IMG/VR virus record: IMGVR_UViG_3300045988_159685
Direction: 5' to 3' (one strand)
From: a virus
DNA: 64,000 bases
Below the pieces are notes generated by a model that saw nothing but the letters and a program-made list of their open reading frames with translations, was not told the origin of the DNA and made no database searches. Both the position numbers and the translations under genes were made by a program. Of the stretch, positions 1,874-21,085 are shown piece by piece. How positions within the stretch are numbered: the first letter of the stretch is position 1; every line of letters starts with the position of its first letter.

Positions 1874-2151
1874 AAAGACTTACCTCCTTGTATCTTGCAC
1901 TGTTTTAAATATTCAATCGTATTGAATAGAGCTTCAGTCATATCTGCTGTAAAACTTAATGGTGCATCTTCATCGTAAGTATTTTCACAGCCCTCAAAAC
2001 TGCCATCAGAATAGATAGTTATAAATTGGTTTCCAACCCGATCAAACACTGCGTCTGTTGCTACGTTGATACAATTGTCACTAGAGCGATCGATATAAAA
2101 GAAACCTGCGTCATACCACATTTTTTTTATTTCTAAATCTGTCATATTCAA
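1855..2151 (-). CDS. hypothetical protein
   Basis: ORF track; TTG 2151 or ATG 2145 after GGAGGT. Confidence 0.5.
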   Translation of the reverse strand: MNMTDLEIKKMWYDAGFFYIDRSSDNCINVATDAVFDRVGNQFITIYSDGSFEGCENTYDEDAPLSFTADMTEALFNTIEYLKQCKIQGGKSLCGSRA

Positions 2152-2270
2152 ACAAATACCTCCATAATTTTGCCAAAATCCGGAATGTTATCCACTGTTG
2201 CTTTTTCTTCTTGAGTCCTACCAAAAGGCGTAACTTCGATATAGCCTTCACAATATGTCCATTCACTCAT
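2148..2270 (-). CDS. possible 40-aa micro-ORF
   Basis: Own translation MSEWTYCEGYIEVTPFGRTQEEKATVDNIPDFGKIMEVFV. Weak SD (AAAGG). Its stop overlaps the next start. Confidence 0.3.
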   Translation of the reverse strand: MSEWTYCEGYIEVTPFGRTQEEKATVDNIPDFGKIMEVFV

Positions 2271-2345
2271 AATAATTCGCCTTTCATATAATTGATTCAA
2301 CTTAGCATTACTTAGTTGACATCAATCAGCTGTCATTTTTTATAA

Positions 2346-3146
2346 TTATCTTGCCCTATTAATTCTCTGTCGGGCTACTGTAATAATATAATCAAAAGAC
2401 GGCATTGGTTTGAGTTTAAACTCATTTTTCTTATGAAGATTATCTATCTTCGACTTGATTTCTGCCTTGGGCAGAACCCCATATCGTATATATTTATCCA
2501 AAGTATCGTAACTAAATCCAAGGTTATCTTCATCCGTCTTCCCACACAAACCATCAGAAGGAGTTTTCTCAATAAATTTCTCAGGTAAACCAAGAAAGCG
2601 ACCTATTGATTTTACTTCTTGCACTGTAAACTTCGCAAGCGGTGCCATGTCCCCTGCTCCATCGCCATACCTTGTGGCATAACCAATATAATCCTCAGAA
2701 TAATTGCAAGTATTAATAACACGCCCACCGACTGTCTGCGATACAGCATAAAGTGTAGCCATACGCAAACGTGCTGGCAGATTTATTGTTGTTTGTTCAC
2801 TAAGGGTAGTCTCAAGGGCGTCACTGATTTTTGCTATAGCAGTATCATAAACTGATTCAATATTTATTGTTACATTATTAATACCGAGAAACTCGCAGAG
2901 TTCATTAGCATAGTTGATATCTGCCTGTTCTCCGTTTGGCATAAGCACGCCGAACACTCTTTCTTTACCAAGTGCTTTAACGCAGAGTGCTGCGACAACA
3001 GATGAGTCTTTTCCGCCAGATATTCCAATAACGGCTTTGCAACCATTTCCATTGTTCTCAAACCAATCTCTAATCCATTCAACACACATCTCTGCTGCCA
3101 CGTAAGAATTAAAATCCAGATTATAATTATCGTCATTATAACTCAT
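2346..3146 (-). CDS. nadE: NH3-dependent NAD+ synthetase
   Basis: 266 aa; PP-loop GISGGKDSSV; NadE-like length and layout; SD GAGGTG. Confidence 0.85.
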   Translation of the reverse strand: MSYNDDNYNLDFNSYVAAEMCVEWIRDWFENNGNGCKAVIGISGGKDSSVVAALCVKALGKERVFGVLMPNGEQADINYANELCEFLGINNVTINIESVYDTAIAKISDALETTLSEQTTINLPARLRMATLYAVSQTVGGRVINTCNYSEDYIGYATRYGDGAGDMAPLAKFTVQEVKSIGRFLGLPEKFIEKTPSDGLCGKTDEDNLGFSYDTLDKYIRYGVLPKAEIKSKIDNLHKKNEFKLKPMPSFDYIITVARQRINRAR

Positions 3147-3164
3147 AAAAACACCTCGCTTAGA

Positions 3165-4643
3165 TTAGAAATTATTATTGTGGAGTCTGTTGCGGATATT
3201 AGCAAGTGAGTCATCAATAAGCAATTCGCTATTTCTGAATATTGCCTTTAACTCTTGTTTACTATTACAGGAAACTTCTTTCCAAGTATATTCGTCCTTA
3301 TAACAGAGCTCGCCGTTATCGTCTTTATAAACAAGACAACAACCCTTTTGTGATTTCTTAAATCCACCCTCTTTTGGATTTTTGAATATAGGATATGGCT
3401 TATGATCGATTTCACAGTATGTTGCCTTAATACAAGAACTAAAGGTATCTCTTGTAAATGGTTTAAGTATTCCATCTTCTTCTACGCACTGAAATGAAAA
3501 TGAGCCAACGCCAAGTGCAACATTGCTAGCCGCAAAGCCGTTATCCTTTAAAATTTCATATATCCTTTCACAACGCTGGATAGTAATTGAGTCACCATAA
3601 ATAGCCTTTACATGAGGGTCAAGAACTTTGTATCCCTTACTATTAATTGTGCCACCAAATTCATCCCAAAGTTTAAACACTGTTTTAGTTACAACTTCTA
3701 TGCAATCACCTGAATCGCCACGCATAAGCATGCAACCATTGTGCGCCATAATCTCTGGTTTTATTTGTGGCAAAACGTTATCAATGACATTCCAATAATC
3801 ATATGAATCAAGGACAGCAGAAAAACTTGTATCAGGATAAATCTCGGTCAATAATCTTTTAAGCAACGTAACTTCGTCACCATCAACCGCATAATTTGAA
3901 CACATAACTGCATGTTCGGTAGAGGGCGAACCAAATGCTACAGGCTCTTTGGTACAATCGCAATTATAAAGCTTTTCAAGATATGGTATGACAGGGACTG
4001 TTGCTGTATTTACAAAACTCAGACACCAACCAGCCGCCGCTTTAATAGCAGAATCCGTACATTCTTCACCTCTAAAGTCAAAAGAACCTAGAGCTTTGTT
4101 TCGTGACACACTATCATCACAGGTTTCATCGTAGAACTTATTTACGATATCACGATAAGTTGCACCCACCGTTGCGGCAAGCATTGGATGCCAAGCCTCG
4201 GCTGATATAAGCGATTCAAGAGCCTGCGGTAGCCATGCAAAATCGTCATGCGTATTAGTTATGCAAAACATCGGAACGTGCATTGGAACCTTTGTTCCTT
4301 CTGGTAATGCCCATATCTCAATTGGGAGATAGCCAAGGGCATGCAGGTCTTTTATTTTCTGCAAGCCATATACGCCCTTACCAAGTGAAGCATCCATAAT
4401 ACGCTCATATTCCGAAATGACTTCGTCTATAGGGCGTTCAAAAAATCTTTCATTAAAGTAATCTATCAAATAGGTTTTTACAAAGCCCTGAAGTCCGAAC
4501 ATCACGACTTTGTTCCACATCCTTACACGACTCATTCGTGGCGTAAAATATGAAACGGATTTTGTTATCTTAGTCGGCAACATCTCAGCATGAACCGCTT
4601 TATAAAAATCAATAAGTAGCATTGGGTTTATATTATATAACAT
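3165..4643 (-). CDS. nicotinamide phosphoribosyltransferase family protein (NadV/Nampt-like; possibly NARP1 Namat)
   Basis: 492 aa, typical Nampt length. N-terminus NPMLLIDFYK..H and overall family resemblance. SD GGAGGTG. Confidence 0.8.
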   Translation of the reverse strand: MLYNINPMLLIDFYKAVHAEMLPTKITKSVSYFTPRMSRVRMWNKVVMFGLQGFVKTYLIDYFNERFFERPIDEVISEYERIMDASLGKGVYGLQKIKDLHALGYLPIEIWALPEGTKVPMHVPMFCITNTHDDFAWLPQALESLISAEAWHPMLAATVGATYRDIVNKFYDETCDDSVSRNKALGSFDFRGEECTDSAIKAAAGWCLSFVNTATVPVIPYLEKLYNCDCTKEPVAFGSPSTEHAVMCSNYAVDGDEVTLLKRLLTEIYPDTSFSAVLDSYDYWNVIDNVLPQIKPEIMAHNGCMLMRGDSGDCIEVVTKTVFKLWDEFGGTINSKGYKVLDPHVKAIYGDSITIQRCERIYEILKDNGFAASNVALGVGSFSFQCVEEDGILKPFTRDTFSSCIKATYCEIDHKPYPIFKNPKEGGFKKSQKGCCLVYKDDNGELCYKDEYTWKEVSCNSKQELKAIFRNSELLIDDSLANIRNRLHNNNF

Positions 4644-4660
4644 AACTTGTCACCTCCAAA

Positions 4661-5512
4661 TTAAAACATATCGAAAATCTCAATTTTGTCTGCGTTTACT
4701 TCAAGTCCATCGGCACCAATCTTCTTGCGGTAAATACTATTGGTAGAGAAAACCTTTTTGATAAGCCCGCTCTTAATCATGTCGCCGTCGTGTACCGAAT
4801 TTTCAAGATGTGAAACGTATAAATAAATGTCGCCAACACCATACTCTTTTAGAGCTTTTGCACTATAATAGAAAGTTCCGCCCCTAGAACAAATATCATC
4901 AACAATTAATACGTTTCTACCTTTTAATGTGTCTGTATTACCCATGATGCTTAATCCATTAATGGTTCCAGTTTTCCAATCCCTATTTTTCATACCGAAT
5001 ACATAAGGCACTTCAAGAATACTAGATATGAATGAATAACGTTTCATTGCGCCTTCGTCTGGGAAAAATAAAATAAGATCTTTCCTAGAAATCTTTTCGT
5101 CAATAATATTATCCCTCAAAATGCCAGCCGGTGAAGAATCTCTGATATTGTTTATTAGAGCCGCTCCAACGTTTGAATGAATGTCAAGTGTAAATACTTT
5201 TCTAAACTCCATATTATTGATTAGATTTGCAAATGTTTTGAGCGTAAACATTTCAAACGCTTTTTGTGTACGATCCATGCGAGCATTAGGAACATATGGC
5301 ATATTCAGATTAATGTTACAAAAGCCCTTGCTCTTTAACCAATCGACACAGCAAGCTAACTGAAATATCTCCGAATCATTGTCGTAAAGCCAAGTTATGT
5401 CTATAGGTGCTGAAACCCCATATCCAATGAGTTCCGCAATGCTATAGGTCAGTTTACACGTTCCATCAGGAAATTTAATAATATTAATTGGTTTAGAATC
5501 AATAGAAATCAT
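4661..5512 (-). CDS. ribose-phosphate pyrophosphokinase family protein (Prs-like; possibly ADP-ribose diphosphokinase Adps)
   Basis: 283 aa; PRPP/PRTase loop NVLIVDDICSRGGTFYYS; TLDIHS motif; SD AGGAGG. Confidence 0.7.
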   Translation of the reverse strand: MISIDSKPINIIKFPDGTCKLTYSIAELIGYGVSAPIDITWLYDNDSEIFQLACCVDWLKSKGFCNINLNMPYVPNARMDRTQKAFEMFTLKTFANLINNMEFRKVFTLDIHSNVGAALINNIRDSSPAGILRDNIIDEKISRKDLILFFPDEGAMKRYSFISSILEVPYVFGMKNRDWKTGTINGLSIMGNTDTLKGRNVLIVDDICSRGGTFYYSAKALKEYGVGDIYLYVSHLENSVHDGDMIKSGLIKKVFSTNSIYRKKIGADGLEVNADKIEIFDMF

Positions 5513-5524
5513 AGAATCCTCCTA

Positions 5525-6049
5525 TTATATAATGTTAATTTGACAACTTTTTGCTACCGTTAAAGCCGCCTGCTTCGCTTCGGGTGTTGTGCCTGCTGTA
5601 GCATTTTCGATTATATTAATCTTCATTTCGGGAAACCGTGTTTTTAGAATTAAGGCATTTGTAATCACGCAGATATCAGTGCAAAGTCCAACCAAATCGA
5701 CTTCGTCGTAGTTATCCTCAACTAACTTAGTGGCAATATTAAATGTACCAAATGTCGGCTTATTAATAACATCACATGGTATATTGCTTTCAATAGAAGC
5801 GACAGCTATATCATCATGTATTTTCCAACCATTGGTGCCTCTTATACAATGTTCGATAGGTAAATTTTTGCCCTCCTGTGTATCAAGATAATCTTTGCTA
5901 TGGGTGTCTCGTGTAAAAAATATCGCCGCATAGTCGGAACTTTGTATAAGCTTTGCAACATTTGGAACAATAGCTTGGGCTTCCCTAGTTCCCAAACTGC
6001 CATTAATAAAATCATTCTGCATATCAATAACTATTAATGCTTTTTTCAT
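5525..6049 (-). CDS. isochorismatase-family hydrolase, nicotinamidase (PncA)-like
   Basis: MKKALIVIDMQNDF (catalytic Asp), RDTH, LVGLCTDICV (catalytic Cys). Start moved to the ATG after AGAGG. Confidence 0.65.
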   Translation of the reverse strand: MKKALIVIDMQNDFINGSLGTREAQAIVPNVAKLIQSSDYAAIFFTRDTHSKDYLDTQEGKNLPIEHCIRGTNGWKIHDDIAVASIESNIPCDVINKPTFGTFNIATKLVEDNYDEVDLVGLCTDICVITNALILKTRFPEMKINIIENATAGTTPEAKQAALTVAKSCQINII

Positions 6050-6186
6050 ATGTAAACCTCTTTTCTCATTCACTTCATATAATATAAAATAAGTCCATCT
6101 AGGTGCTTACAAGGGTTTTCTTCTTGCCTTTAGCGGTACATTCGATCTTATATAGTTTTATCATTTTTTTATTTCTCCTAAAAAAA

Positions 6187-6747
6187 TCAAGCATTGTTAT
6201 CTGCTAAATAGCCTTCCACATCAAAATGAACACCGTCGCCATTACAAATCAAATACTCACTAAACCTAGGATCTATGTCATAATTATTCAATGTAGTTCT
6301 GTCACACTTTTTAAAATATGTTCCTTCCACATCAAACTCTGAATTGGCTCTATCTGTATAACCATATGTATCAAATCCAATACATAATACACTTATATCA
6401 TTGGTATACCAATTACCTCGATATAAAAGTAAATCGTTTACAACACATAAGCAATGCTCGTTAGTAACTCCATAAGGAGCTCCCGATTTTCCAATAATAA
6501 CGTCACCAATTTTAAATGGAAATTTATCGCCATCATCGCAGTCACAGGACTCAAATATATCGACCCATCTATCAGCCAAATAACCATAACAAGTGCCAAA
6601 TACATCATAACAAAACTGTTCTTTCAATCTTTTATATTTCAAAACATCGTCAAAATCTATTATATATTTACGATGCTCAAAATGATCAATATGCTGGTCG
6701 TAGAACTCGCAAAGCAAATCTTTATGTCTTCTAAGTTTCATCCACAT
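6187..6747 (-). CDS. hypothetical protein; N-terminus (KLRRHKDLLCEF) related to the small-protein family
   Basis: ORF track; ATG 6747 is 7 nt after AGAGGT. Confidence 0.5.
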   Translation of the reverse strand: MWMKLRRHKDLLCEFYDQHIDHFEHRKYIIDFDDVLKYKRLKEQFCYDVFGTCYGYLADRWVDIFESCDCDDGDKFPFKIGDVIIGKSGAPYGVTNEHCLCVVNDLLLYRGNWYTNDISVLCIGFDTYGYTDRANSEFDVEGTYFKKCDRTTLNNYDIDPRFSEYLICNGDGVHFDVEGYLADNNA

Positions 6748-7066
6748 TGTCAATACCTCTTAACTTACTCGGTTCTTCAAACAAATCTTTATGCCATCTT
6801 TTATCTGTAATCAAGCGTTTTGAACATTGGTTTTCTGCGGAAAGCTTCCAATAACCAGAAAACGTACTATCATGTATTTTCACAATTTTACCACATAAAA
6901 TATCCATGTCTCCACCTAAAATGCCATAGTCATTCAGATTACGTATATAATCATCTGTATTTCCGTATTCATAGTCATCGTCATATATGTCTGAGTCAAA
7001 ACTATATTCACAACATAAATCCTTAAATCTCCTAATGCGAACTTTGTCACCACTATTTAATATCAT
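6731..7066 (-). CDS. small-protein family member (GDKVRIRRFKDLCCEY)
   Basis: ORF track; shares the N-terminal motif with seven other ORFs. Confidence 0.55.
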   Translation of the reverse strand: MILNSGDKVRIRRFKDLCCEYSFDSDIYDDDYEYGNTDDYIRNLNDYGILGGDMDILCGKIVKIHDSTFSGYWKLSAENQCSKRLITDKRWHKDLFEEPSKLRGIDNVDET

Positions 7067-7074
7067 GATATCAC

Positions 7075-8661
7075 CTACTCATTCTCTGTAAGATATTCAG
7101 ATTTATTAATATTTGAACTCCAAATAACTATTTCTTGATTTTCAGCAGTGTTGCCTGTTAATGAATTTGTAGAGGTTAGCCATTCCCCATTAAATAGGCT
7201 TTTCACGCCAGCTCCAATCTTAATCAAAGACAGGTTTGATCCATACCTGTTGCAAGCATTGCGGAAGTTCATATAATCAGGAAAATTAAGATAATGCTCG
7301 CCGCTTATTACAAGACCTGACTCTTTTTTAACTGGCGTATCTGAAATATCTATACCAACTTCAGAAAGTATCGAATTGAAACTTGCATTTACCGATTCAT
7401 CTGTATAAATATTGCATGCAGGATACATTCTTGACTGAACATATTCTGTATGATCCTTATTTATCATAAATAACTGCCTAAATATTTTATCGTTCTTATA
7501 GTAATCATTGTCAGAACAATTTTTATCAAGCCCATATGTAATAACGGTTACATCATCATTTGCATATGATAAACATCCAGCGTGCCAACCACCACGATTT
7601 TTAAAACTGTGACACGATGACCAACTGTTGCCATGTGACATTGTAACAAAATCACATATATTTAGTGATACTACAAATTTAACCTGTAGAGGCCTTAAAG
7701 CCATGGCATCAAAACATTTTGCCGAGGCTTTGTTATACTCCGTCCTATCGGCTAATTTGAATTTTTTCATAATTGCATTTATATTTCTACTAGCCTTTGC
7801 ATTGACATTCATATCATCGTCATTTAAGCCGATTCTATTTAAGTATTCTTTTATATTTCTATATGAGGATTCAACAAAACGAATACAATTGTCAACCGAT
7901 TTGTAACTATACGAACTTGAAACTATAGCTGCTATGTAATCATATACTGACAAGGTTTGACGTGAAAATACAGGTGATTCCGCAGACATTGTTTGGAATA
8001 ATTCGCGAGCCGCAAACGCAACTACGTTATTATCTACATTACGATTGATTGGCAAGTCAATGGCAATACATTTTTCTTTATCATTCCACTGCGGATGTTC
8101 TCTAAACAATGCAATTAAATCCTTTTTGGCTTCATACCAAGTTTTAAATTCGTTATAAATGTATTTATCTTTTGCCTGAGGATAATAGGTCTTTATTAAT
8201 TTGTAGAAACAATCATAATTATACTTAAGATTGGAGTCCATCCAATCGGCGTTTTCTTCAATTGGTTCTTCAACAAATTTATAAGCTTTAAATGAGAGAC
8301 TGCCATCAGAATAAATATACGGACGCCTTTTAAGTACACCGTCCTGATAATATGAAAAAGTCTTTCTGCCAGATCCATATACAACAACTTTTTTATTTGT
8401 TCTACTAAGAATAACTGCGTCACCTGGAAGAAGTAACCTTGTATGCTGACCAGTAATGAAAACATATTTGTCCCCTAATATCTCATGCCCAAATACTTCT
8501 GCATCATACCATCGTCGAGCTACTATTTGTTTAGTTGCATCAATGATAAGTGGTTTTTTAAAGTTTCCAATAAGTTTTGATTCACCAACTGTTACATATT
8601 CATCATTTTCATTTTTTTCAATATCATAGCCATAAACACGTCCACAAAGTCTTATATACAT
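7075..8661 (-). CDS. large hypothetical protein, paralogue of 11249..13135
   Basis: Shared blocks: HPQWNDKEKCIAI and NICDFVTMSHGNSWSSCHSF..GGWHAGCLSY...FRQLF...QSRMYP. SD AAGGAAG. Confidence 0.6.
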   Translation of the reverse strand: MYIRLCGRVYGYDIEKNENDEYVTVGESKLIGNFKKPLIIDATKQIVARRWYDAEVFGHEILGDKYVFITGQHTRLLLPGDAVILSRTNKKVVVYGSGRKTFSYYQDGVLKRRPYIYSDGSLSFKAYKFVEEPIEENADWMDSNLKYNYDCFYKLIKTYYPQAKDKYIYNEFKTWYEAKKDLIALFREHPQWNDKEKCIAIDLPINRNVDNNVVAFAARELFQTMSAESPVFSRQTLSVYDYIAAIVSSSYSYKSVDNCIRFVESSYRNIKEYLNRIGLNDDDMNVNAKASRNINAIMKKFKLADRTEYNKASAKCFDAMALRPLQVKFVVSLNICDFVTMSHGNSWSSCHSFKNRGGWHAGCLSYANDDVTVITYGLDKNCSDNDYYKNDKIFRQLFMINKDHTEYVQSRMYPACNIYTDESVNASFNSILSEVGIDISDTPVKKESGLVISGEHYLNFPDYMNFRNACNRYGSNLSLIKIGAGVKSLFNGEWLTSTNSLTGNTAENQEIVIWSSNINKSEYLTENE

Positions 8662-8716: not shown

Positions 8717-9040
8717 TTAAACCGCCCTGCTCGCCTTGATTTTATCATTGGCAATTTTAAATATTTTGAGGTAATATTCCAACCTTGCTTTTTTAATTTC
8801 ATTATCGCCACACCATCGCATCTGCTTTTCAAGCTCAATTATTAATTGAGGTATCGTGTAATTATCTTTTATAGTATTACAGTCGTGGCAGCATACAACT
8901 AAATTACTGACCTCGTCTTTACCACCTTTTGATACAGGTATGATATGGTCAAGCGTTTTATCTGATTTGATATACTTCCCACAATAAAAGCAGAAATCAG
9001 AATCTACCTCTTTGCGTACTTGTTCTGTGTAGTTTCGCAT
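8717..9040 (-). CDS. HNH endonuclease
   Basis: CFYCGK...LDHIIPVSKGGKDEVSNLVVCCHDCNTIKDN. Start set to ATG 9040, directly downstream of terminator 9046..9076. Confidence 0.8.
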   Translation of the reverse strand: MRNYTEQVRKEVDSDFCFYCGKYIKSDKTLDHIIPVSKGGKDEVSNLVVCCHDCNTIKDNYTIPQLIIELEKQMRWCGDNEIKKARLEYYLKIFKIANDKIKASRAV

Positions 9041-9045
9041 ATAAT

Positions 9046-9076
9046 AAAAAAAAAGAGGGCGACTAACGCCGCCCTC
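9046..9076 (-). terminator. rho-independent terminator
   Basis: Minus strand GAGGGCG-8 nt-CGCCCTC followed by U9. Confidence 0.75.
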
Positions 9077-9086
9077 GTACATGTTG

Positions 9087-9803
9087 TTATCTAATGCCTC
9101 TGCTGTCGATTTCATGATTGATGAATTTCTGCAAATCATCATATGTCATAGCGGCAATAGTATCATCGAGACCATACTCATCGTCACATGTTGACACTGG
9201 GTAAATCTTGTTTGCCTCGCAGATCATCTGATCAACATTGCAATAATCGTCGCCATACTTTGTAGGATTGTCAACCGCAGTTCTATAAACCTCTACAATA
9301 TCATAGTCGCTATTTGACACATGCTCCAGGGTGTCATTGTCAAACTTGGAAAGCCATGTAAAGCTGTTATTAGCTGTATGATATCTAACAATATCGCCGA
9401 ACTCTGCGCCCTTAAATACTGTAGACCTCTTGCCGTTTCTATGAACAAGCATATCACCTGTTTTAAGGGAGTCGATTGTTATATCGTCGCCGTTAGCCTC
9501 GGCTGTAGCTCTGTCGTAAACAACTGTGCCGTACTCCAGCATCTTAAGTGGATTAAAAACAAGGTCGCCAATCTTATTGCTTGCAACGCCTATAGCACGA
9601 TAAACCTTAACAATTGTCAGTCCATCTGCTCTCTTGTTTGTCATATCTGAATTGTAGTTTACGCCGAGTCTTGAGAATGAATTAAACTCAGTATGGAAGC
9701 GAAGCACATCTTCTCTAGCTGTGCCCTTCATAACTGTTGCCATCTTACCGTTTGCACATATAACGAGGTCGCCTGTCTTAAGATTAGAAATTGTAAATGT
9801 CAT
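9087..9803 (-). CDS. hypothetical protein with internal duplication
   Basis: Two repeats: LKTGDLVICANGKMATVMKGTAREDVLRFHTEFNSF and LKTGDMLVHRNGKRSTVFKGAEFGDIVRYHTANNSF. Start moved to ATG 9803 after AAAGGAGA. Confidence 0.55.
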   Translation of the reverse strand: MTFTISNLKTGDLVICANGKMATVMKGTAREDVLRFHTEFNSFSRLGVNYNSDMTNKRADGLTIVKVYRAIGVASNKIGDLVFNPLKMLEYGTVVYDRATAEANGDDITIDSLKTGDMLVHRNGKRSTVFKGAEFGDIVRYHTANNSFTWLSKFDNDTLEHVSNSDYDIVEVYRTAVDNPTKYGDDYCNVDQMICEANKIYPVSTCDDEYGLDDTIAAMTYDDLQKFINHEIDSRGIR

Positions 9804-11248: not shown

Positions 11249-13135
11249 TTAGTCCACCTCTTTTATTCCATCAATATCAACTATACATACATACTTGTCG
11301 TCAACATTAAGTGCACATAACGTATGTTCAGCACCATCGTACATCCACTTAAAAGTTTTTATTATTGTTCCAAAAATATTAAGATCATAGTAGCATTCAC
11401 AAGCTTTTCTATCAAAAAGCTGTAATGTTGGAAACATCTCTTTTGCACTAAGAAAACGTATAAAAATTAAACCCTTTTTTGAAACAAAAACTTTTTTGCC
11501 AGCAATAAGTTTCTTTTCACGGCAATCTTTACACAATCCGTCAACTAACGAATTGTTACCATAAAACGCTTGATGACAACAATTACATTTATGAACACGA
11601 TGCGGGGCATATAAAACATCATGTTCTTCGTCGTAACCCGCATAATTATCTACTTCTCTTACATAAAAATACTCATTGGTAATATCGTCAATAAAAAATG
11701 CCTCCTGTGTGCTCCAATCTTCCCCCTCATCACAATCGTCGCATATCATATTTCCTGAATTGCAAAGTTCATCGCCGCATTTCAAACACCAAGAACTATG
11801 CCCAATTGTAATATCATCGCCATCCCATATACTATCAAAAGCGTACAGATTAGTATTGTATTGCTCATAATTATAGTCTGGATAATGCAATGAGTTTTCC
11901 GCCGCGCAGATATGACTATGATCCACTTTTCTATACTCGTTTTTTATACCAAGACAATTGGATATTGCTTGCGAAACAAAATATGTATAAGTTGCGTCGC
12001 GCTGAGGTAACTTATAATTTGGATAGTTACGAGATTGCAATAGAAGCCCGTTCTGAAAACAATAAATCTGTCTTGTCAGCTTGTTGTTTTCCCATGGCTC
12101 GCCTACATATTGGTTTGACAAAGTATAAAAAATCATGCTCGAAGAATCCATTATATAAGACTGCGTTCCTGCATGATAACAACCGTGGTGCCCTACATGG
12201 TGACATGAATCCCATCCCTCACCATATGACATTTTTAGGAAGTCGCATGGATTTACTGAGAGTATTGCCACCTGCGTGTTTTTTAATGGGTTTACGGCAT
12301 CGGCAATCACCGCAAAATCGTGATTGTAGTTTGGGTATTTATCAAGTCCCATATCTACAAAAATCTTGTTAAGTTCACGAGAATACTTGGCCCCAACGGT
12401 CATATGTACGCCAACCGCCTCATACCTTTCTTTTATCTCCTTAGTAACAAACTGCTGTGGTTGGGTACACTGCACACCATCCCACATTATGTCTAATTGT
12501 TTGTCTGTCAGATACATACCGTTTTCACGGCAATTATGGTAAAATTCTTTACAAGCTTTAAGAAAGTCGTTACCGTCCTTTACACGAGTTTCTTCTACCT
12601 CACCTTTAATGCAAAGATTTTTTTCATCCCAATTAGGATGTTTCCTCAATATAGAAAGCAGTTCTGCTTTGTTTGTAAAGAATTCATTAACGATATCGAC
12701 AATAACGTCTTTATTATACTCGTAGCTTGCATCGTCAAGAATACTGCACATATTATTTACAATATCCATGCGTTCACAAGAACCCTGTGGTTCTTTTTCA
12801 TGAGGCTTCATTGGAGCAAAAAACGTAAGCTCATCAGCTTCAGGTGAAATATAATGATATAAAGCCGATTCACCATTATTTTTTTCATATGTAAATGTTG
12901 CCGTAGAATCAATAACGTGTTTGGCTATTTTACATACCTTAACTTTTCTGCCGTTCTTACGCAGAACGATAGTGTCACCAATCTCAAAGAGGTTTTCACT
13001 AAGTTCACTGCGGTTATAGATTTCTCCCGACATCATATAAACTTCGTCGCCTGCTATCTTCCTTATTCTGCCGATATACTCTCCACAACGAACAAGCTCA
13101 AATCTTCTTAATGTTTTAAATTTTTCTTCCGTCAT
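11249..13135 (-). CDS. large hypothetical protein, paralogue of 7075..8661, Cys-rich C-terminus
   Basis: HPNWDEKNLCIKG and NPCDFLKMSYGEGWDSCHHVGHHGCYHAGTQSY...TRQIY...QSRNYP. C-terminal CxxC clusters (CLKCGDELC, CDDCDEG, CNCCHQ, CKDCREK). Confidence 0.6.
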   Translation of the reverse strand: MTEEKFKTLRRFELVRCGEYIGRIRKIAGDEVYMMSGEIYNRSELSENLFEIGDTIVLRKNGRKVKVCKIAKHVIDSTATFTYEKNNGESALYHYISPEADELTFFAPMKPHEKEPQGSCERMDIVNNMCSILDDASYEYNKDVIVDIVNEFFTNKAELLSILRKHPNWDEKNLCIKGEVEETRVKDGNDFLKACKEFYHNCRENGMYLTDKQLDIMWDGVQCTQPQQFVTKEIKERYEAVGVHMTVGAKYSRELNKIFVDMGLDKYPNYNHDFAVIADAVNPLKNTQVAILSVNPCDFLKMSYGEGWDSCHHVGHHGCYHAGTQSYIMDSSSMIFYTLSNQYVGEPWENNKLTRQIYCFQNGLLLQSRNYPNYKLPQRDATYTYFVSQAISNCLGIKNEYRKVDHSHICAAENSLHYPDYNYEQYNTNLYAFDSIWDGDDITIGHSSWCLKCGDELCNSGNMICDDCDEGEDWSTQEAFFIDDITNEYFYVREVDNYAGYDEEHDVLYAPHRVHKCNCCHQAFYGNNSLVDGLCKDCREKKLIAGKKVFVSKKGLIFIRFLSAKEMFPTLQLFDRKACECYYDLNIFGTIIKTFKWMYDGAEHTLCALNVDDKYVCIVDIDGIKEVD

Positions 13136-16085: not shown

Positions 16086-16160
16086 TGGTGACTCGTGCAG
16101 GAATTGCACCTACGATTCCATCCTGAGAAGATAGCGTCTTAACTACTTGACCAACGAGCC
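16086..16160 (-). tRNA. tRNA-Glu(CUC), copy A, CCA encoded
   Basis: Minus strand GGCTCGT-TG-GTCAAGTAGTTAAGAC-G-CTATC-TTCTCAG-GATGG-AATC-GTAGG-TGCAATT-CCTGC-ACGAGTC-A-CCA. The GGTCAAG..GGTTAAGAC D-arm is typical of bacterial tRNA-Glu. Confidence 0.85.
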
Positions 16161-16243
16161 ATAAGCCCATAAGGGCTTTTTAATACTATGGGATTATTGG
16201 AGGTGAAGAACCATAGTATGTATCAGGAATTACCCTCGCGCTG

Positions 16244-16319
16244 TGGCTGGAGTGGCTGGACTCGAACCAGCGGAATGACGGAGTCAAAGTCCGTTGCCTT
16301 ACCTCTTGGCTACACTCCA
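16244..16319 (-). tRNA. tRNA-Gln(UUG), CCA encoded
   Basis: TGGAGTG-TA-GCCAAGAGGTAAGGC-A-ACGGA-CTTTGAC-TCCGT-CATTCC-GCTGG-TTCGAGT-CCAGC-CACTCCA-G-CCA. Has the U1-A72 pair typical of tRNA-Gln. Confidence 0.9.
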
Positions 16320-16345
16320 ATATAGCCCGTAAAAGCGGGCATTTT

Positions 16346-16618
16346 TTACAACTTTTTACCATCAAGGGTTTCGAACATATATTCCGTCCAAGCCCAACAC
16401 GTGATTTCATTCAACGTATATTCGCCTGTATCTCCATATCCTCTATCCTGAATCTCCGTTATACTGTGAATTTCTCCACAATATATATACATTGATGGGT
16501 TAAAACTTAAATATGAATTTTTGGGGCGTAATGGTTCATCTTCTTGATTGTTGTAACTATATTCGCAAAGCAGGTCTTTTTTACGCCTTATTCTGACTTC
16601 ATTGCCGATTTTTAGCAT
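16346..16618 (-). CDS. small-protein family member (MLKIGNEVRIRRKKDLLCEY...EYMFETLDGKKL)
   Basis: ORF track 16346..16633. Start moved to the ATG of MLKIG. Overlaps the upstream gene end by 20 nt. Confidence 0.6.
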   Translation of the reverse strand: MLKIGNEVRIRRKKDLLCEYSYNNQEDEPLRPKNSYLSFNPSMYIYCGEIHSITEIQDRGYGDTGEYTLNEITCWAWTEYMFETLDGKKL

Positions 16619-17150
16619 TATGCACACCTCCAATTTTGTATGGAATCTGAGTTACTCCAAGTTTTTTTGCGGCAATGTATCTGGCATAGCCGTCTTTCAA
16701 AATTTTGTTGCCCTTAGCATCAAGCTTTATAGTTATGGGGTTATCGAAAATTCCATAATATTTATAGAAACAGATAGCCCTGTCCACCTTTTCTTTCTTT
16801 GGCGGATGATTCATAAAGTCTCTGGGTATGTACACTTTATCTACATCTATGAGCTTTTTGAAGTTGCTCATAAAAGCGGGGCGACTAATGTTTACAACTA
16901 TCGCATTTATAGTTGCTACGCCATCACGCTTGGAGATTTCGTAATCTCTTCGACCTGTAATCAAAGAATATGTATCACGGGAATTTCGCCGCACAATTAC
17001 AACGAGGTTGTCTTTTGTGCCGAGTTTTTCAGTGTCGATACTCTTCTTGTGTACACTATCTGTCAGCATGATGTTCCTAACTGGTATAGGAATCGCCTGC
17101 GCCGCCATTCTTGACCTGAAATTTTTTATATTGTTAAAACAGTACGCCAT
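16599..17150 (-). CDS. protein with two ParB/Srx-like N-terminal domains
   Basis: YSLITGRRDYEISKRDGVATINAIV and ILKDGYARYIAAKKLGVTQIPY resemble the ParB-nuclease DGxHR...LG...IP box. Confidence 0.5.
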   Translation of the reverse strand: MAYCFNNIKNFRSRMAAQAIPIPVRNIMLTDSVHKKSIDTEKLGTKDNLVVIVRRNSRDTYSLITGRRDYEISKRDGVATINAIVVNISRPAFMSNFKKLIDVDKVYIPRDFMNHPPKKEKVDRAICFYKYYGIFDNPITIKLDAKGNKILKDGYARYIAAKKLGVTQIPYKIGGVHNAKNRQ

Positions 17151-17179
17151 AATTTCTACCTCCTATTTTTTATAATGGC

Positions 17180-17255
17180 TGGTGTGCCATTCGGGATTTG
17201 AACCCGAGACCTTTCGATTAAAAGTCGAATGCTCTACCAATTGAGCTAATGGCAC
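17180..17255 (-). tRNA. tRNA-Lys(UUU), copy 1, CCA encoded
   Basis: GTGCCAT-TA-GCTC-AATTGGTA-GAGC-A-TTCGA-CTTTTAA-TCGAA-AGGTC-TCGGG-TTCAAAT-CCCGA-ATGGCAC-A-CCA. Confidence 0.9.
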
Positions 17256-17387
17256 ATAGACCGCCGTGGCGGTCAGCATTGTAACCCATGGTTACACAGA
17301 TTACAATTTAATTACAAAGTGGTGACATAATTCAATCGACCGTGTTACTTAAATGTAACTCGCAAGCTTTTTAGCTTGCATTTGAAT

Positions 17388-17428
17388 AAAAAAAATAACG
17401 ACGGATTAACCAAAGTTGACCCGTCGTT
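17388..17428 (-). terminator. rho-independent terminator
   Basis: Minus strand AACGACGG-16 nt-CCGTCGTT-A-U8. Ends a ~390-nt untranslated stretch downstream of CDS 17820..18461. Confidence 0.65.
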
Positions 17429-17614
17429 AAATATATAAAATGGACACTTTTCAGCCTTGTGGATAACCTACGGTCAAGTTATGACGCACCTTAACCAAAC
17501 TCAAGGGTTTTGTAAAATCTTAATTGTTGTGCTTTAAGATTTAAGCTTTAGACGATTATAAGCTTTGAACTTTCGTAATTAAATTTTCAGCTTTATGCCT
17601 TAAGCTTTATCTTA

Positions 17615-17657
17615 TTACTCGTACAGGAATTGAACCTGTAATGCAACCAGTCGAGCA
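17615..17657 (-). ncRNA. tRNA-Glu-derived minihelix (acceptor + T arm only), no CCA
   Basis: Minus strand TGCTCGA-CTGGTTGCATT-ACAGG-TTCAATT-CCTGT-ACGAGTA-A. The D and anticodon arms are deleted relative to the tRNA-Glu copies. Confidence 0.45.
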
Positions 17658-17819
17658 ACAAAACATTCCCACAAAAAAGGAATATCATATATCTTCGTAT
17701 AGACTACGATAGCTATTACTTATATTTGAGGCCAGATTTTTATTATTTTACTTTGTGAATATAGCCTAAAACACAAAGGTCATAAAATTAAAGGTTTTCA
17801 AAAAGCACCCATTTTTTGC

Positions 17820-18461
17820 TTAGTACGAAATTTCGATTTCGGTTATAGCGTTCGATACGCTGATAGCCGAGTCAAAATCAATCTTAAACTTGTCTATACG
17901 ATCGACAAGGTCAGAAATGATTTCGGCAGTGTCAAAACCCTCGATAATTTCAAAAGTGTTCGCCTTTATGAAATTGGTTTTCGCCTCCTCTATTTCCTTT
18001 GTAACAGCTTTACCGTCTTTTGAACCAAACATTCCAAGTACATACTCATCGGCACGCCCCTGTAATGTTTCGCCGTTCTCATAATTACATCTGTCCTGTG
18101 CAGCTTTAAGCTGTTTAGACATATGCTTCAAAAGATCTTCCTCAAATTCAATGCCGTGATTCTTATACTCTATAGCCTCGGCAATAGTCAGTTTCATACC
18201 CTGTATTGTGACTTCGGTCTCGGCATTTGAAAGCGTAACGGCACGCTTAATTGCCTTACGCCTTTTTATAAGGTCGGCTATTTTGTCATAGCTCGCCTTG
18301 AAGCCATTCTTAGCTTCTTCAATAGAGACGCCATTTATCTTTGTGTTGCTATGTTTGTTCTCAACCACAAATTTTGCATCTTTGATAAGGGCGGGTATCC
18401 TCTTATCGAGAATCTTAAGCTCACAAAGTGCCTGATGAATCGTCATTTTTTCGTTAGTCAT
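17820..18461 (-). CDS. hypothetical protein (213 aa, acidic, helical)
   Basis: ORF track; SD AAAGGAG; isolated between tRNA units. Confidence 0.6.
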   Translation of the reverse strand: MTNEKMTIHQALCELKILDKRIPALIKDAKFVVENKHSNTKINGVSIEEAKNGFKASYDKIADLIKRRKAIKRAVTLSNAETEVTIQGMKLTIAEAIEYKNHGIEFEEDLLKHMSKQLKAAQDRCNYENGETLQGRADEYVLGMFGSKDGKAVTKEIEEAKTNFIKANTFEIIEGFDTAEIISDLVDRIDKFKIDFDSAISVSNAITEIEISY

Positions 18462-18515
18462 TTCAAAAACTCCTTTGAATTTTAAAATTTACAGACCTGA
18501 TTATGCCTGTATTGA

Positions 18516-18575
18516 TGGTGGCTCACACAGGATTTACACCTGTACTCTCACTGGGGATAAGAGTCTATTTGAGCC
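18516..18575 (-). ncRNA. 60-nt tRNA-like element (acceptor + T arm + one irregular hairpin), CCA encoded
   Basis: GGCTCAA-ATAG-ACTCT-TATCCCCAGTG-AGAGT-ACAGG-TGTAAAT-CCTGT-GTGAGCC-A-CCA. There is no D arm and the middle loop is 11 nt. Confidence 0.45.
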
Positions 18576-18628
18576 ATAGCGATGCAAAGCATCGCACTCA
18601 GAAAAAGAAGGGAATGCCCAAAACGGGC

Positions 18629-18704
18629 TGGTGACTCACGCAGGATTTGAACCATGCAATTCCGCCCTGAGAAGGCGGCGTCTTAACCGTTTGACCAGTG
18701 AGCC
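18629..18704 (-). tRNA. tRNA-Glu(CUC), copy B (bulged U in T stem; may be a pseudogene)
   Basis: GGCTCAC-TG-GTCAAACGGTTAAGAC-G-CCGCC-TTCTCAG-GGCGG-AATT-GCA(T)GG-TTCAAAT-CCTGC-GTGAGTC-A-CCA. Confidence 0.65.
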
Positions 18705-18728
18705 ATAAGGCGGAGAACTCCGCCTATA

Positions 18729-19673
18729 TTACTTTTCTTTAAAGGTTGGCGAACAGCTCTCAAAGAATTCTTTTACGTTGACATTGTATTTCTCAAGAAT
18801 CGCAACGATAACTTTTTGTACCTTGTCCCATTCGTCATCTTTGATATACTGAATATACGGTGTCTTGCGATTGCCACGCTTTTTGAGGTCAATCCCGTAG
18901 CGATAACTAAGCTGCTTATATAGCATACTGAAAGCCACGCCGAAACTGATATGCAAAGTCGAAGCAAACTTACGCATAACTCTGTTGAACATTTTGCGGT
19001 CTGAAATATGTAAGACCTCGGCTGTTAAAAGCTTGTTTGACGTTTCAATTCTGTCGATATGACGCCGCTGAAACGCCGTGTAAGCCTGGGCGGCTGTCGC
19101 AAATTCCATGATATCACCCGTGGCAAAAGCCTTGCCGATTGCCGCTTGGAGCTTTTCTTCGTCGTCGATATCTTGCGTGAGAAGTTCGGGCTTTTCCTCG
19201 GCGGTGTGTTCGACAATGTTTAGGAGCTGTGTCCTGACCTCTTGGGCTATCTTGCTATCACGAAGAAGCATGCCTATTCTGAGGATGGCACGCTTTGAGA
19301 AACACTTGATGCCTCGGTTTGGGATTTCAAGGTGGGTATTATCGTCGATTTGGATAACAAGTTTGCCGTTTTGTTGCTCAAAATTCTTAAAGGTACAACT
19401 TGTACCTTTAAGAATTTCTTTAAAGATTGTAGGCGTTTTAGTTGCAACGCCATCACCCTCAATCTCAGTGCGGTTTCGCTGACAACAACGCTTTATAGTA
19501 TCAATATCAACCTCATAATAATCCGCCACCTGCCTAATAGTCATACAGTTCATCTCAGGTATCAAAAGCAGCTTCTTAACCTTATCAAGAACCTCAGTTC
19601 TGGCAATAAGCTCGTTTCTGAGGTCATGGTTGTCTACCATGCTTTCGCTCGTGATGATTTTACTTTCTGGCAT
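18729..19673 (-). CDS. putative DNA-binding regulator / antirepressor (KilA-N / ORF6N-like)
   Basis: MTIRQVADYYEVDIDTIKRCCQRNRTEIEGDG...RGIKCFSKRAILRIGMLLRDSKIAQEVRTQLL resembles ORF6N-type domains. SD GAGGAGGTG. Operator-like palindromes lie upstream and inside the gene. Confidence 0.5.
   Translation of the reverse strand: MPESKIITSESMVDNHDLRNELIARTEVLDKVKKLLLIPEMNCMTIRQVADYYEVDIDTIKRCCQRNRTEIEGDGVATKTPTIFKEILKGTSCTFKNFEQQNGKLVIQIDDNTHLEIPNRGIKCFSKRAILRIGMLLRDSKIAQEVRTQLLNIVEHTAEEKPELLTQDIDDEEKLQAAIGKAFATGDIMEFATAAQAYTAFQRRHIDRIETSNKLLTAEVLHISDRKMFNRVMRKFASTLHISFGVAFSMLYKQLSYRYGIDLKKRGNRKTPYIQYIKDDEWDKVQKVIVAILEKYNVNVKEFFESCSPTFKEK
19381..19417. promoter_or_regulatory. 37-bp perfect palindrome inside CDS 18729..19673
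   Basis: AAATTCTTAAAGGTACAA-C-TTGTACCTTTAAGAATTT. Its arm differs by one base from upstream operator O1. Confidence 0.6.
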
Positions 19674-19729
19674 AATTTCACCTCCTCTTGTAAAACAAAT
19701 TGAACATCTTGCTTAGTTAGTAACCTAAA

Positions 19730-19862
19730 TTCTTAACGGAACAAGTTGTTCCTTTAAGAAATATCCATCTTTAATGGGATAAGTTGTTCCTTTAAAAGCA
19801 CTTGAATAGAGTTTAGACTTTTTTGCTATAATGCCATTTGAACTAACGGAACATCTTGTTCC
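19730..19862. promoter_or_regulatory. three operator-like sites upstream of the regulator gene
   Basis: O1 19730..19760 TTCTTAACGGAACAAGTTGTTCCTTTAAGAA. O2 19776..19790 GGGATAAGTTGTTCC(TTTAAAAG). O3 19848..19862 GGAACATCTTGTTCC(TTTAG). Also a half-site GAACATCTTGC at 19702. Confidence 0.6.
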
Positions 19863-19898
19863 TTTAGTAATTTTTAAAGATATTAAACTTACCTCTGC

Positions 19899-20072
19899 CT
19901 AACATTTAAGACTTATAATAACCGCAATCACCGTTATAATCAGATTAAGCAGTGCGCCGATCCACAGTGGTGATACCACCCAAAGCCAACTCCAGCATAT
20001 AACTTTAGTCAGTTTCAGTATGATAAATACGATAGTAAGCAGTCCGCAAAAACCAATTCCGCCGCTCTTCAT
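19899..20072 (-). CDS. small hydrophobic protein (57 aa, 2 predicted TM)
   Basis: Own translation MKSGGIGFCGLLTIVFIILKLTKVICWSWLWVVSPLWIGALLNLIITVIAVIISLKC. GGAGGGAG SD lies in the end of the upstream gene. Confidence 0.55.
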   Translation of the reverse strand: MKSGGIGFCGLLTIVFIILKLTKVICWSWLWVVSPLWIGALLNLIITVIAVIISLKC

Positions 20073-20074
20073 AA

Positions 20075-20308
20075 TTATTCTCCCTCCCTTACAATATGAA
20101 ATTTATCCACGCCGTAAATAACGCCAAGTGAGCGCCCATTGTCAAAATTGCAATGAATCGTACCAGCGTCATCGACATGATCAACCGTTCCAAGCGTATT
20201 CGGCTCAACTGGGTATGGATCATCAACCATTTTCTCAAGGCATATTCTTGTACCCTCGGGGAAAACTCTTTTGAGCCAAGATATCCTCTTGTCATTGTAT
20301 AAACTCAT
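20075..20308 (-). CDS. hypothetical protein, DUF4314-like
   Basis: VDDPYPVEPNTLGTVDHVDDAGTIHCNFDNGRSLGVIYGVDKF. ATGA overlap with the upstream gene. Confidence 0.5.
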   Translation of the reverse strand: MSLYNDKRISWLKRVFPEGTRICLEKMVDDPYPVEPNTLGTVDHVDDAGTIHCNFDNGRSLGVIYGVDKFHIVREGE

Positions 20309-20646
20309 ACCTTGCCTCTTTCAAACTCAATAACACCGCCATCGGCATCAACGACAACTGGGCGAATTGATAGGATATTTCTTGTGAATAAAAACGCACA
20401 GGCTAATGGCACGGCAATAACCGCACTCTCGGGCATAGCTATAGCCATAACGCCCATAGCAAAGCCGAGAACTTTCTGCATAATCCACAACACTTTGGCT
20501 GCTTTTCTTTCAAGTCTGCGGCTTTTATAGCTTTCTATGCGCTTTTTAAGCTCTCTTTCTTCTTTGTCACGTTCTTCTGCGTGTTTCATAGATCTGATTA
20601 ACTTTGTCAGGTCGTATGTATTATGTACGTTTTCAAAAGCGTCCAT
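20305..20646 (-). CDS. membrane protein (charged N-terminus, 2 TM)
   Basis: ORF track; VLWIMQKVLGFAMGVMAIAMPESAVIAVPLACAFLF; SD GGAGGTG. Confidence 0.55.
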   Translation of the reverse strand: MDAFENVHNTYDLTKLIRSMKHAEERDKEERELKKRIESYKSRRLERKAAKVLWIMQKVLGFAMGVMAIAMPESAVIAVPLACAFLFTRNILSIRPVVVDADGGVIEFERGKV

Positions 20647-20719
20647 AAAAACACCTCCATTTTAAAATAATAATAATGATTTTCTGATTACGCCTGAAAA
20701 TCACCATAAAATCTGGCGT

Positions 20720-20795
20720 TGGTGCGACTTATGGGGCTTGAACCCATGACCTCCGCATTAAAAGTGCGTTGCTCTACTAACTGAGCTAAAGCCGC
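20720..20795 (-). tRNA. tRNA-Lys(UUU), copy 2, CCA encoded
   Basis: GCGGCTT-TA-GCTC-AGTTAGTA-GAGC-A-ACGCA-CTTTTAA-TGCGG-AGGTC-ATGGG-TTCAAGC-CCCAT-AAGTCGC-A-CCA. Confidence 0.85.
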
Positions 20796-20888
20796 AAGCG
20801 CAGGCATCACACTACATTCCCATATGGTGGGATAAGCACTGTACCTGCTATGCCAATTTTCTTTTTGTGTAGCATTGGCAAACTACAC

Positions 20889-20975: not shown

Positions 20976-21085
20976 TTGTCTTGCCCACAACCCACAGAAG
21001 GCAAGTAATGTACGGCTCATCCGTACTTCCCTACGTATTCAGCGACTGATGCCACCGATGCGCGTCTAAGGACTGCGACGTCCTT

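Follow-up and report, generated by a model that had tools for sequence, protein, structure and literature searches.

A phage NARP1-like gene module with nicotinamidase and NadE that probably rebuilds NAD+ through nicotinic acid

Depletion of NAD+ is a major bacterial anti-phage strategy, and among the ways known in which phages respond to it the commonest is the enzyme pair Adps and Namat, NAD+ reconstitution pathway 1 (NARP1; Osterman et al., bioRxiv 10.1101/2024.02.11.579819, with structures reported in PMC12774641 and PMC13586617). Here we describe an operon in the virus record IMGVR_UViG_3300045988_159685, of which one stretch of 64,000 nucleotides (the window) was analysed. Four co-directional genes on the minus strand encode, in this order, a nicotinamidase (PncA), an Adps-like enzyme, a Namat-like enzyme and the NAD+ synthetase NadE. 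The aspartate with which Namat binds the amide group of nicotinamide is lost from the Namat-like enzyme, and NAD+ is therefore probably rebuilt via nicotinic acid; among relatives the loss goes together with the presence of PncA and NadE. A full four-step rebuilding of NAD+ through nicotinate, that is a deamidated variant of NARP1, is a reasonably probable account of the module, and a switch of base from nicotinamide to nicotinate in the Namat-like enzyme, as read from its residues, is more secure than the four-step mechanism. The gene set, the enzyme families, the active-site substitutions and the association with PncA and NadE were all computed here. The four genes are as follows.

5525..6049, minus strand: nicotinamidase (PncA-like, isochorismatase fold), 174 aa; the mechanical open reading frame (ORF) extends to a GTG at 6073 and encodes 182 aa
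4661..5512, minus strand: Adps-family enzyme resembling phosphoribosyl pyrophosphate (PRPP) synthetase (PRPS), predicted ADP-ribose pyrophosphate synthetase, 283 aa
3165..4643, minus strand: Nampt-like transferase of the Namat family, 492 aa, changed in its pyridine pocket and predicted to be a nicotinate ADP-ribose transferase
2346..3146, minus strand: NH3-dependent NAD+ synthetase NadE, single domain, 266 aa

The pyridine pocket of the Namat-like enzyme

The Namat-like protein matches PF04095, PF18127 and phrog_448 (the last at 7e-156). Its best match in the PDB is the Namat of SpbetaL1 (9w5x/9w5w; 7.8e-112, 377 bits), and it matches the phage-like structure 9ke8, which has a non-aromatic clamp, at 7.8e-86 (292 bits) and human Nampt at about 1e-41 (about 145 bits). 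The product of 3165..4643, which a preliminary description of this DNA had placed in the Nampt family, is thus nearer Namat than the PRPP-using Nampt.

The nicotinamide pocket of SpbetaL1 Namat is made up of F189, R192, D215, A242, R306, D13′ and Y15′, and D215 makes a hydrogen bond to nicotinamide, a D215A mutant yielding 8.1-fold less NAD+ from nicotinamide (PMC12774641). The human Nampt residue that corresponds to D215, Asp219, is reported in PMC7096376, with a citation of Khan et al., to define substrate specificity. The window enzyme has Ala214 at the position of D215, and so lacks the residue for amide recognition, and Ser241 at the position of A242; N212 aligns with SpbetaL1 G213, and the Namat motif SF-x-G-T-D-T-I-P reads SFVNTATVP. 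A human Nampt with the substitution D219S accepts nicotinic acid. The core residues H244 (catalytic), F188, R191, R308, D310, G380, S381 and R398 are kept, as are F382, T397, D399, R39, D12 and Y14, and the residues aligned to SpbetaL1 G360 and D361 are both kept in the window enzyme and invariant in all 58 module sequences.

Relatives can be divided into Asp/Glu-type and Ala/Ser-type proteins according to the residues aligned to positions 215 and 242 of SpbetaL1 Namat, and a diverse viral set of 129 distinct Nampt-like proteins comprises 56 of the former and 73 of the latter. Of about 480 aligned columns, just 13 tell the two groups apart, and two of the 13 are the pocket contacts D215 and A242. 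All contacts to ribose, phosphate and AMP are common to both types (R306, D308, G360, D361, G390, S391, F392, T398, R399, D400, D13, Y15, F189, R192 and R/K40). Because these contacts are kept while the pocket pair is changed, the change is focused on the corner of the active site that recognizes the amide. The preliminary description had Namat joining ADP-ribose pyrophosphate (ADPR-PP) to nicotinamide; its assignment to the family stands, but nicotinamide is probably not the base, since Asp215 is absent, and nicotinate is likelier.

The adenine clamp is less conventional. In the window enzyme it reads GSFSFQC-VEEDGILKPF-TRD, with Phe at position 3 and Cys at position 7, and departs from the strict clamp motif; a 9-residue insertion in the clamp helix region places C386-F396 (11 residues) where SpbetaL1 has Y396-N397. 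A double mutant of the SpbetaL1 clamp residues R40, which lies in a loop, and F392 abolishes function. Both residues are kept in the window enzyme, as R39 and F382, and across the Ala/Ser-type proteins the arginine is found in 62/73 and the phenylalanine in 72/73.

Association of the residue pair with PncA and NadE

Viral contigs matched by the Nampt-like protein or the nicotinamidase of the window show the order PncA-Prs-Nampt-NadE nearly without exception, and two gut phages in GenBank carry the module, namely MT835544 and Phass-1 (OQ749652), in which NadE is preceded by an additional HAD-like ORF. The four-gene cluster is no chance juxtaposition, because its genes are found together in well over 100 independent contigs of viral, metagenomic or genomic origin.

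Gene neighbourhoods were scored for PncA and NadE within 8 kb; the scans overlap in part, with some contigs appearing in more than one. In the diverse viral set PncA or NadE was found at 0/56 Asp/Glu-type loci, which have Ala at 242 and carry a Prs/Adps-like gene in 47/56 cases. All 73 distinct viral Ala/Ser-type proteins have Ser at 242, and PncA and NadE are both present at 60/62 of the Ala/Ser-type loci with full flanks. Two more scans covered 73 and 71 Asp/Glu-type loci, none with PncA or NadE, and 14 Ala/Ser-type loci, 13 of which carry PncA and/or NadE; the remaining locus is on a 3.1-kb contig with hardly anything on it but the gene. Metagenome contigs of the Ala/Ser type have PncA and/or NadE in 8/9 cases. 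Overall, none of about 200 Asp/Glu-type loci has either gene.

Species-representative genomes (one per species) contain at least 505 relatives, and the best 80 of these, at 74-80% identity, are all of the Ala type (80/80), with the full four-gene order in 67/80. Among the best 150 representatives of clusters at 50% identity, the residues at 215 and 242 are Asp and Ala in 93, Ala and Ser in 32, Ser and Ser in 17 and one-off combinations in six, two being gapped at 215. The clamp of the Ala/Ser-type cluster representatives is of the canonical 11-residue form in 10 and carries an insertion in about 40, and metagenomic Ala/Ser-type proteins are found that keep the exact canonical adenine clamp (GSYTYQYNTRD, GSYSFQYNTRD). 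Other Ala/Ser-type lineages have the gene orders Prs-PncA-Nampt-NadE, Nampt-NadE-PncA or PncA-Prs-Nampt, and these orders, together with the lineages of canonical clamp, indicate that the association is not confined to one syntenic block. The residue pair at 215/242 tracks gene content over several hundred loci, and in many lineages it is strictly associated with PncA and NadE. The suggestion in the preliminary description that the extra genes point to a deamidated route is borne out to this extent, in that the amide-binding Asp is lost and its loss covaries with PncA and NadE.

Some relatives have features of their own. Loci L272-L276, L284-L288 and L330-L331 have Glu at 215 and the inverted order Nampt-(HAD or Macro)-Prs, and are without PncA or NadE. 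A number of Nampt/Namat homologues (P0122, P0141, P0153, P0159, P0193, L031, L052, L160 and others) are oversized and/or bear insertions; many have a length of 800-1100 aa and align with the query in two to four separate stretches, and others have long insertions near the residue aligned to SpbetaL1 318 or within the clamp. Inteins, inserted homing endonucleases or additional domains may account for these features.

The Adps-like, nicotinamidase and NadE proteins

The Prs-like protein matches PF00156, PF14572, PF13793 and phrog_619 (the last at 5.6e-69). A hidden Markov model (HMM) for Adps was built only from 48 Prs-like partners of canonical Asp-type Namats, including the Adps of ICP1, which has been characterised biochemically and structurally (PMC13586617). 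Against this model the Prs-like protein scores 265 bits and a fragment of Bacillus subtilis PRPS scores 110.7 bits. With the PRPS model TIGR01251 it reaches 112.3 bits, just under the cutoff of 113, and it falls far under the cutoffs of all PRPS equivalog models. The ICP1 Adps residues F18, R87, H121, D161, K185, D212, D213, I214, C215 and the lid residue F221 (PMC13586617) are kept, the corresponding residues of the Prs-like protein being F14, R78, H112, D152, K175, D205, D206, I207, C208, G211, T213 and F214; position 92 of ICP1 Adps, a phenylalanine, is a glutamine here and is variable among canonical Adps proteins too. The pyrophosphate (PP) loop is DDICSRGGTFYY (DDICSRGGT), compared with DDIIDTAGTI in B. 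subtilis PRPS, so that the ribose-5-phosphate loop DxxD-T-[AC]-G-T of housekeeping PRPS is absent. At 283 aa the protein is close in length to ICP1 Adps (280 aa) and shorter than B. subtilis PRPS (317 aa), which fits the absence of the C-terminal helices of PRPS. Its gene directly adjoins the Namat-like gene with a 17-nt spacer, and its active-site residues are common to the Adps partners of Ala/Ser-type and Asp/Glu-type Namats. By its sequence, then, the product of 4661..5512 sides with the Adps family and is not a housekeeping PRPP synthetase, and synthesis of ADPR-PP is predicted for it. The adjoining Prs and Nampt homologues had been taken in the preliminary description for the signature of NARP1, a reading with which both the Adps HMM score and the nearest structure of the Namat-like protein agree.

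The nicotinamidase matches PF00857 (3.4e-25), and its nearest solved structures are nicotinamidases and pyrazinamidases from Pyrococcus horikoshii (1im5/1ilw), Streptococcus pneumoniae (3o90) and Mycobacterium tuberculosis (PncA, 3pl1). Its D9, K97 and C127 align with D10, K94 and C133 of 1ilw, which we take to be the catalytic triad, and its D48, H50 and H67 align with D52, H54 and H71, presumably the metal ligands, so that both the D/K/C triad and the D-x-H...H metal site, by which nicotinamidases are told from other proteins of the isochorismatase fold, are found. The NCBIfam PncA model gives a weak match of 27.7 bits for a cutoff of 174. NadE matches PF02540 (1.5e-55) and TIGR00552 (191 bits for a cutoff of 63.65), has the PP-loop SGGKDSS beginning at residue 43 and lacks a glutaminase domain; these features identify it as a single-domain NAD synthetase of the NH3 type. 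Its top matches in the PDB are to NH3-dependent NadE proteins, with 2e18 (P. horikoshii NadE, 1.2e-40) in first place and 3fiu, which we take to be the NadE of Francisella, in second. An archaeal single-domain NadE, that of Methanocaldococcus jannaschii, accepts nicotinic acid adenine dinucleotide (NaAD) only, and a Francisella NadE homologue has been described as a nicotinamide mononucleotide (NMN) synthetase (PMC3376133). The profiles PF00857 and PF02540, with those of the Prs and Nampt families, agree with the four families named in the preliminary description.

Genes accompanying the module and its relatives

Viral contigs in which PncB (PF04095 and PF17767) lies between homologous PncA and NadE genes represent phage modules of the Preiss-Handler pathway, and a cytidylyltransferase resembling NMNAT is also present in the PncB modules of L072, L076 and L078 (8.0-11.0 kb). 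Since PncB, with or without the NMNAT-like gene, stands between PncA and NadE in these contigs, Adps and the Namat variant appear to occupy the slot that leads from nicotinate to NaAD. Searches of the 64-kb window by tblastn with phage PncB and NMNAT-like proteins gave no match to PncB or to NadD/NMNAT, in agreement with what had been read from the ORFs alone.

A Macro-domain gene resembling Poa1p lies inside 23/73 Ala/Ser-type viral loci, and none was found in the window. The encoded protein weakly resembles ADP-ribose 1''-phosphate phosphatase (6lfu/6lfq, 1e-4), and by analogy the gene echoes Adpp of NARP1-AP and suggests that the modules also process the products of NADases.

Further genes occur in or beside related modules. 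A DxDxT (HAD-like) protein without a Pfam match is encoded in or beside NARP1-type modules at L015 (9482-10240), L001 (11115-11534) and 36 other loci, with a frequency of 21/73 at Ala/Ser-type and 10/56 at Asp/Glu-type viral loci; like Adpp, this protein may be an accessory phosphatase of NARP1. Between the Nampt-like gene and NadE, members of a Ser-type subclade have genes for a protein with a NADAR domain and for a Tpt1/KptA RNA 2'-phosphotransferase, the latter an NAD+-consuming enzyme (L168, 12176-12694; L172, 9936-10487).

Proposed pathway and alternatives

The proposed pathway would begin when a host NADase effector cleaves NAD+, yielding ADP-ribose (ADPR) together with nicotinamide. PncA would then convert nicotinamide to nicotinate and NH3, the Adps-family enzyme would form ADPR-PP from ADPR and ATP, and the Namat variant with its Ala214 and Ser241 would join nicotinate and ADPR-PP directly to give NaAD. 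In the last step NadE would make NAD+ from NaAD, NH3 and ATP, re-using the NH3 of the first step at the cost of one extra ATP. Such a route would need neither NadD nor PncB. All substrates and products in this scheme are inferred, and so are a role against host defences and the reason why a detour through nicotinate would be selected. The module clearly descends from NARP1 and probably works like NARP1 on the ADPR side. There is a little better than an even chance that the Ala/Ser-type Namats in general catalyse a reaction not described before, nicotinate + ADPR-PP to NaAD + pyrophosphate, and that they define a fourth, four-enzyme route of NAD+ reconstitution in phages, one that is widespread in phages of gut Clostridia and occurs with the canonical clamp in other metagenomic lineages.

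Several observations weigh against this account. NaAD as the product is purely what we infer, and NadE could in principle amidate nicotinic acid mononucleotide (NaMN), its second match in the PDB being 3fiu. NadE is absent within 8 kb at 4/55 of the fully flanked genome loci. The insertion that replaces Y396 makes use of ADPR-PP less certain for the window enzyme than for the lineages with a canonical clamp. The Macro-domain gene is also present at the PncB-type locus L063, so that its association does not cleanly separate an ADPR route from a PRPP route. In a neighbour-joining tree 71/72 Ala/Ser-type viral sequences form one clade, with Phass-1 on a separate long branch; a single large clade implies few independent switches, and the locus counts are not independent trials. 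The detour also costs additional ATP, and its advantage is unexplained. Possible reasons include a pool of nicotinate in hosts that deamidate nicotinamide fast, the trapping of a charged base in the cell and an irreversible last step driven by ATP; the route may have evolved because nicotinamide released by NADases is quickly deamidated or lost in these hosts.

The main competing explanation, which we regard as unlikely, is a Preiss-Handler pathway based on PRPP, in which the Prs-like enzyme or the host would supply PRPP, the Nampt-like enzyme would make NaMN, host NadD would convert this to NaAD and phage NadE would finish the synthesis, with PncA feeding the route. The change of Asp to Ala speaks for nicotinate only and is silent on the ribosyl donor; moreover, canonical Namat can use PRPP in vitro according to the literature, and the clamp of the window enzyme has its insertion in the place of Y396. 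Gut jumbo phages are reported to have pncB-nadD-nadE clusters (PMC11662467), and L062, L063 and L080 have PncA-PncB-NadE without an adenylyltransferase. Such adenylyltransferase-free modules indicate that reliance on host NadD is acceptable to phages, which makes that reliance plausible here and weakens any argument from the self-containment of the proposed route. The chief grounds against the PRPP-based explanation are that the Prs-like protein is an Adps, with 265 bits against the Adps model, a score under the PRPS cutoff, a DDIC...GGTF donor loop and an aromatic lid, and that the Ala/Ser-type enzymes have kept all contacts to the AMP moiety, R40 and F392 among them, with several of their lineages retaining the exact canonical adenine clamp. 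In a control that was run with ribose-5-phosphate according to the legend of Fig. 2D of the preprint, the text of which says 'PRPP and ATP', no product of SpbetaL1 Adps could be measured. PncB is, furthermore, available to phages and used by some of them.

Slightly less likely again is that the chemistry is as proposed and the purpose is different, the module being an auxiliary metabolic cluster for the general supply of NAD+ to phage replication or to the lysogen rather than a counter-defence. The element looks temperate and is carried by many genomes of gut Clostridia, its relatives have repressor-like, recombinase-like and PemK toxin genes, and the literature on gut phages reads NAD genes as metabolic (PMC11662467). 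However, ADPR, the substrate of Adps, accumulates mainly after cleavage of NAD+; canonical NARP1 is known from the literature to yield no excess NAD+ when defence is absent and to counter Thoeris, DSR and SIR2-HerA; and the Adpp-like Macro gene in many modules points to the products of NADases as the input.

Ordinary NARP1 acting on ADPR and nicotinamide, with PncA and NadE as a parallel boost to the deamidated salvage of the host and with Ala/Ser tolerated or conferring dual specificity, is improbable: the D215A mutation in SpbetaL1 lowers activity 8.1-fold and not to zero, and NARP1 operons are known to gain accessories (Macro/Adpp, RyDEP), but PncA would destroy Namat's own substrate, the Asp is otherwise essentially invariant and changes jointly with A242 to Ala or Ser plus Ser only where PncA and NadE are present, and the absence of both genes from the Asp/Glu-type loci is hard to square with freely combinable helpers.

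Relation to known NAD+ pathways

With NARP1 the module shares the adjoining Adps- and Namat-family genes, the phage setting, the Adps active site, the core and AMP-binding residues of Namat and the predicted input of ADPR. It differs in the substitutions of D215 by Ala and A242 by Ser, in the 9-residue insertion in the clamp region and in having a nicotinamidase and an NAD synthetase as obligatory companions, which makes for four enzymes and the use of two further high-energy phosphate bonds; nicotinate is predicted as the base, and NaAD instead of NAD+ as the product of Namat. NARP1-AP, with its Macro-domain phosphatase Adpp (bioRxiv 10.64898/2026.01.28.702374), offers a precedent for accessory enzymes that widen the inputs of NARP1. 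In the present module, by contrast, the added enzymes would serve the pyridine half rather than the ADPR half, and the window is without a Macro gene.

The first and last enzymes and the deamidated intermediates are those of the Preiss-Handler pathway (PncA, PncB, NadD and NadE; phage versions in PMC11662467, L072, L076 and L078). Here, however, Adps and the Namat variant take the place of PncB and NadD, and the predicted donor is ADPR-PP rather than PRPP plus ATP. NARP2 (Nampt and NMNAT, as in Vibrio phage KVP40) is likewise a phage NAD+ restoration pathway with a Nampt-family enzyme; the present module differs from it in having no NMNAT and a protein that is nearer Namat than the phage Nampt-like 9ke8. 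NARP3 (PnuC and NadR; PMC13464706) also restores NAD+ in phages and was considered as an identity for the module, to which it is unrelated, neither NadR nor PnuC being present.

A literature search found no published description that links nicotinamidase or NadE to NARP1, consistent with the placing of these two genes outside the two-gene pathway in the preliminary description. A paper on gut jumbo phages lists pncA, NAMPT and pncB-nadD-nadE as annotations only (PMC11662467). As far as the search extended, a NARP1 variant routed through nicotinate with obligatory PncA and NadE, as predicted here, is undescribed.

If the proposed pathway is correct, it would include a new enzymatic reaction, the transfer of nicotinate onto ADPR-PP to give NaAD, and would mean that gut phages and prophages, in a very large group, have redirected the counter-defence to the deamidated branch of NAD metabolism, to judge by the relatives in species-representative genomes and by at least 49 clusters of the Ala/Ser type at 50% identity. 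It would also provide a two-residue rule for annotation, D215/A242 versus A/S215/S242, that separates two kinds of enzyme to both of which the labels 'nicotinamide' and 'nicotinate' phosphoribosyltransferase are currently applied indiscriminately, and it would bear on the flux of nicotinamide and nicotinate in the gut microbiome.

Phage context and hosts

The window is phage DNA, with genes for terminase (33104-34873), portal (34884-36359) and tape-measure (45582-49322) proteins and seven tRNA genes. It matches IMG/VR contigs at 99-100% identity, while megablast of the operon against GenBank phages gave no match, relatives being reached at the protein level only. A homologue search with the Nampt-like protein returned only near-identical proteins (98-100% identity), and identical or near-identical proteins are labelled Ruminococcus sp. 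or R. bicirculans at NCBI, on contigs of up to 697 kb. In close relatives, genes for a repressor-like helix-turn-helix protein, a PemK toxin, a recombinase-like protein and a single-strand annealing protein (SSAP) lie near the module, and suggest a temperate phage. These features suggest that the carrier of the operon is a temperate phage or prophage of gut Ruminococcus. The hosts of the best 80 genome relatives are gut Lachnospiraceae, Ruminococcus, Oscillospiraceae, Acutalibacteraceae, Mogibacterium and the isolate Pseudoruminococcus massiliensis Marseille-P3876. Phages and prophages of gut Clostridia commonly carry the module.

Operon structure and neighbouring genes

The intergenic spacers of the operon are 12, 17 and 18 nt. 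Shine-Dalgarno sequences precede the genes for the Prs-like protein (AGGAGG-5-ATG), the Nampt-like protein (GGAGG-8-ATG) and NadE (GAGG-7-ATG). The start codon of the nicotinamidase is most likely the ATG at 6049, which is preceded by AAGAGG 7 nt upstream, rather than the GTG at 6073, and gene callers predict a 174-aa protein in the near-identical contigs L176-L178. In the preliminary description the four adjacent minus-strand ORFs, their short spacers and their own Shine-Dalgarno sites were correctly placed, and the motifs VIDMQNDF, LVGLCTDICV, VLIVDDICSRGGT and SGGKDSS were all found again; its end of the nicotinamidase gene at 6073 is what the choice of the ATG revises. The expected site of a promoter lies between the preceding ORF (6187-6753) and the start of PncA.

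6050..6186, minus strand: non-coding stretch, expected promoter site

A scan upstream of the operon for the sigma-70 consensus found sites no commoner than in shuffled sequence, and a terminator scan of the operon was uninformative.

Downstream of NadE, a 50-aa ORF on the minus strand of the window (2148-2300) corresponds to the N-terminus of the 172-aa ORF found next after NadE in L176-L178. In those contigs the 172-aa ORF is succeeded by a gene for an RNA ligase (PF09414) and by three small ORFs, a block that appears to be deleted from the window. An HNH endonuclease gene (8717-9142, minus strand) lies a few kb upstream of the operon, and related contigs, including L176-L178, have more HNH/RRXRR and LAGLIDADG genes around the module. 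The presence of these genes around the module fits the mosaic gene content of close relatives.

Two large minus-strand ORFs of the window, 7075-8661 (528 aa) and 11249-13135 (628 aa), have no Pfam or PHROG match and are apparent paralogues with a common Cys/His-rich stretch (...N-x-CDF-x-x-MS-x-G-x-x-W-x-SCH...). The tRNA genes, three for Glu-CTC, two for Lys-TTT and one each for Gln-TTG and Leu-TAA, lie at 16086-21160 on the minus strand, in the early, minus-strand arm, with small ORFs between them.

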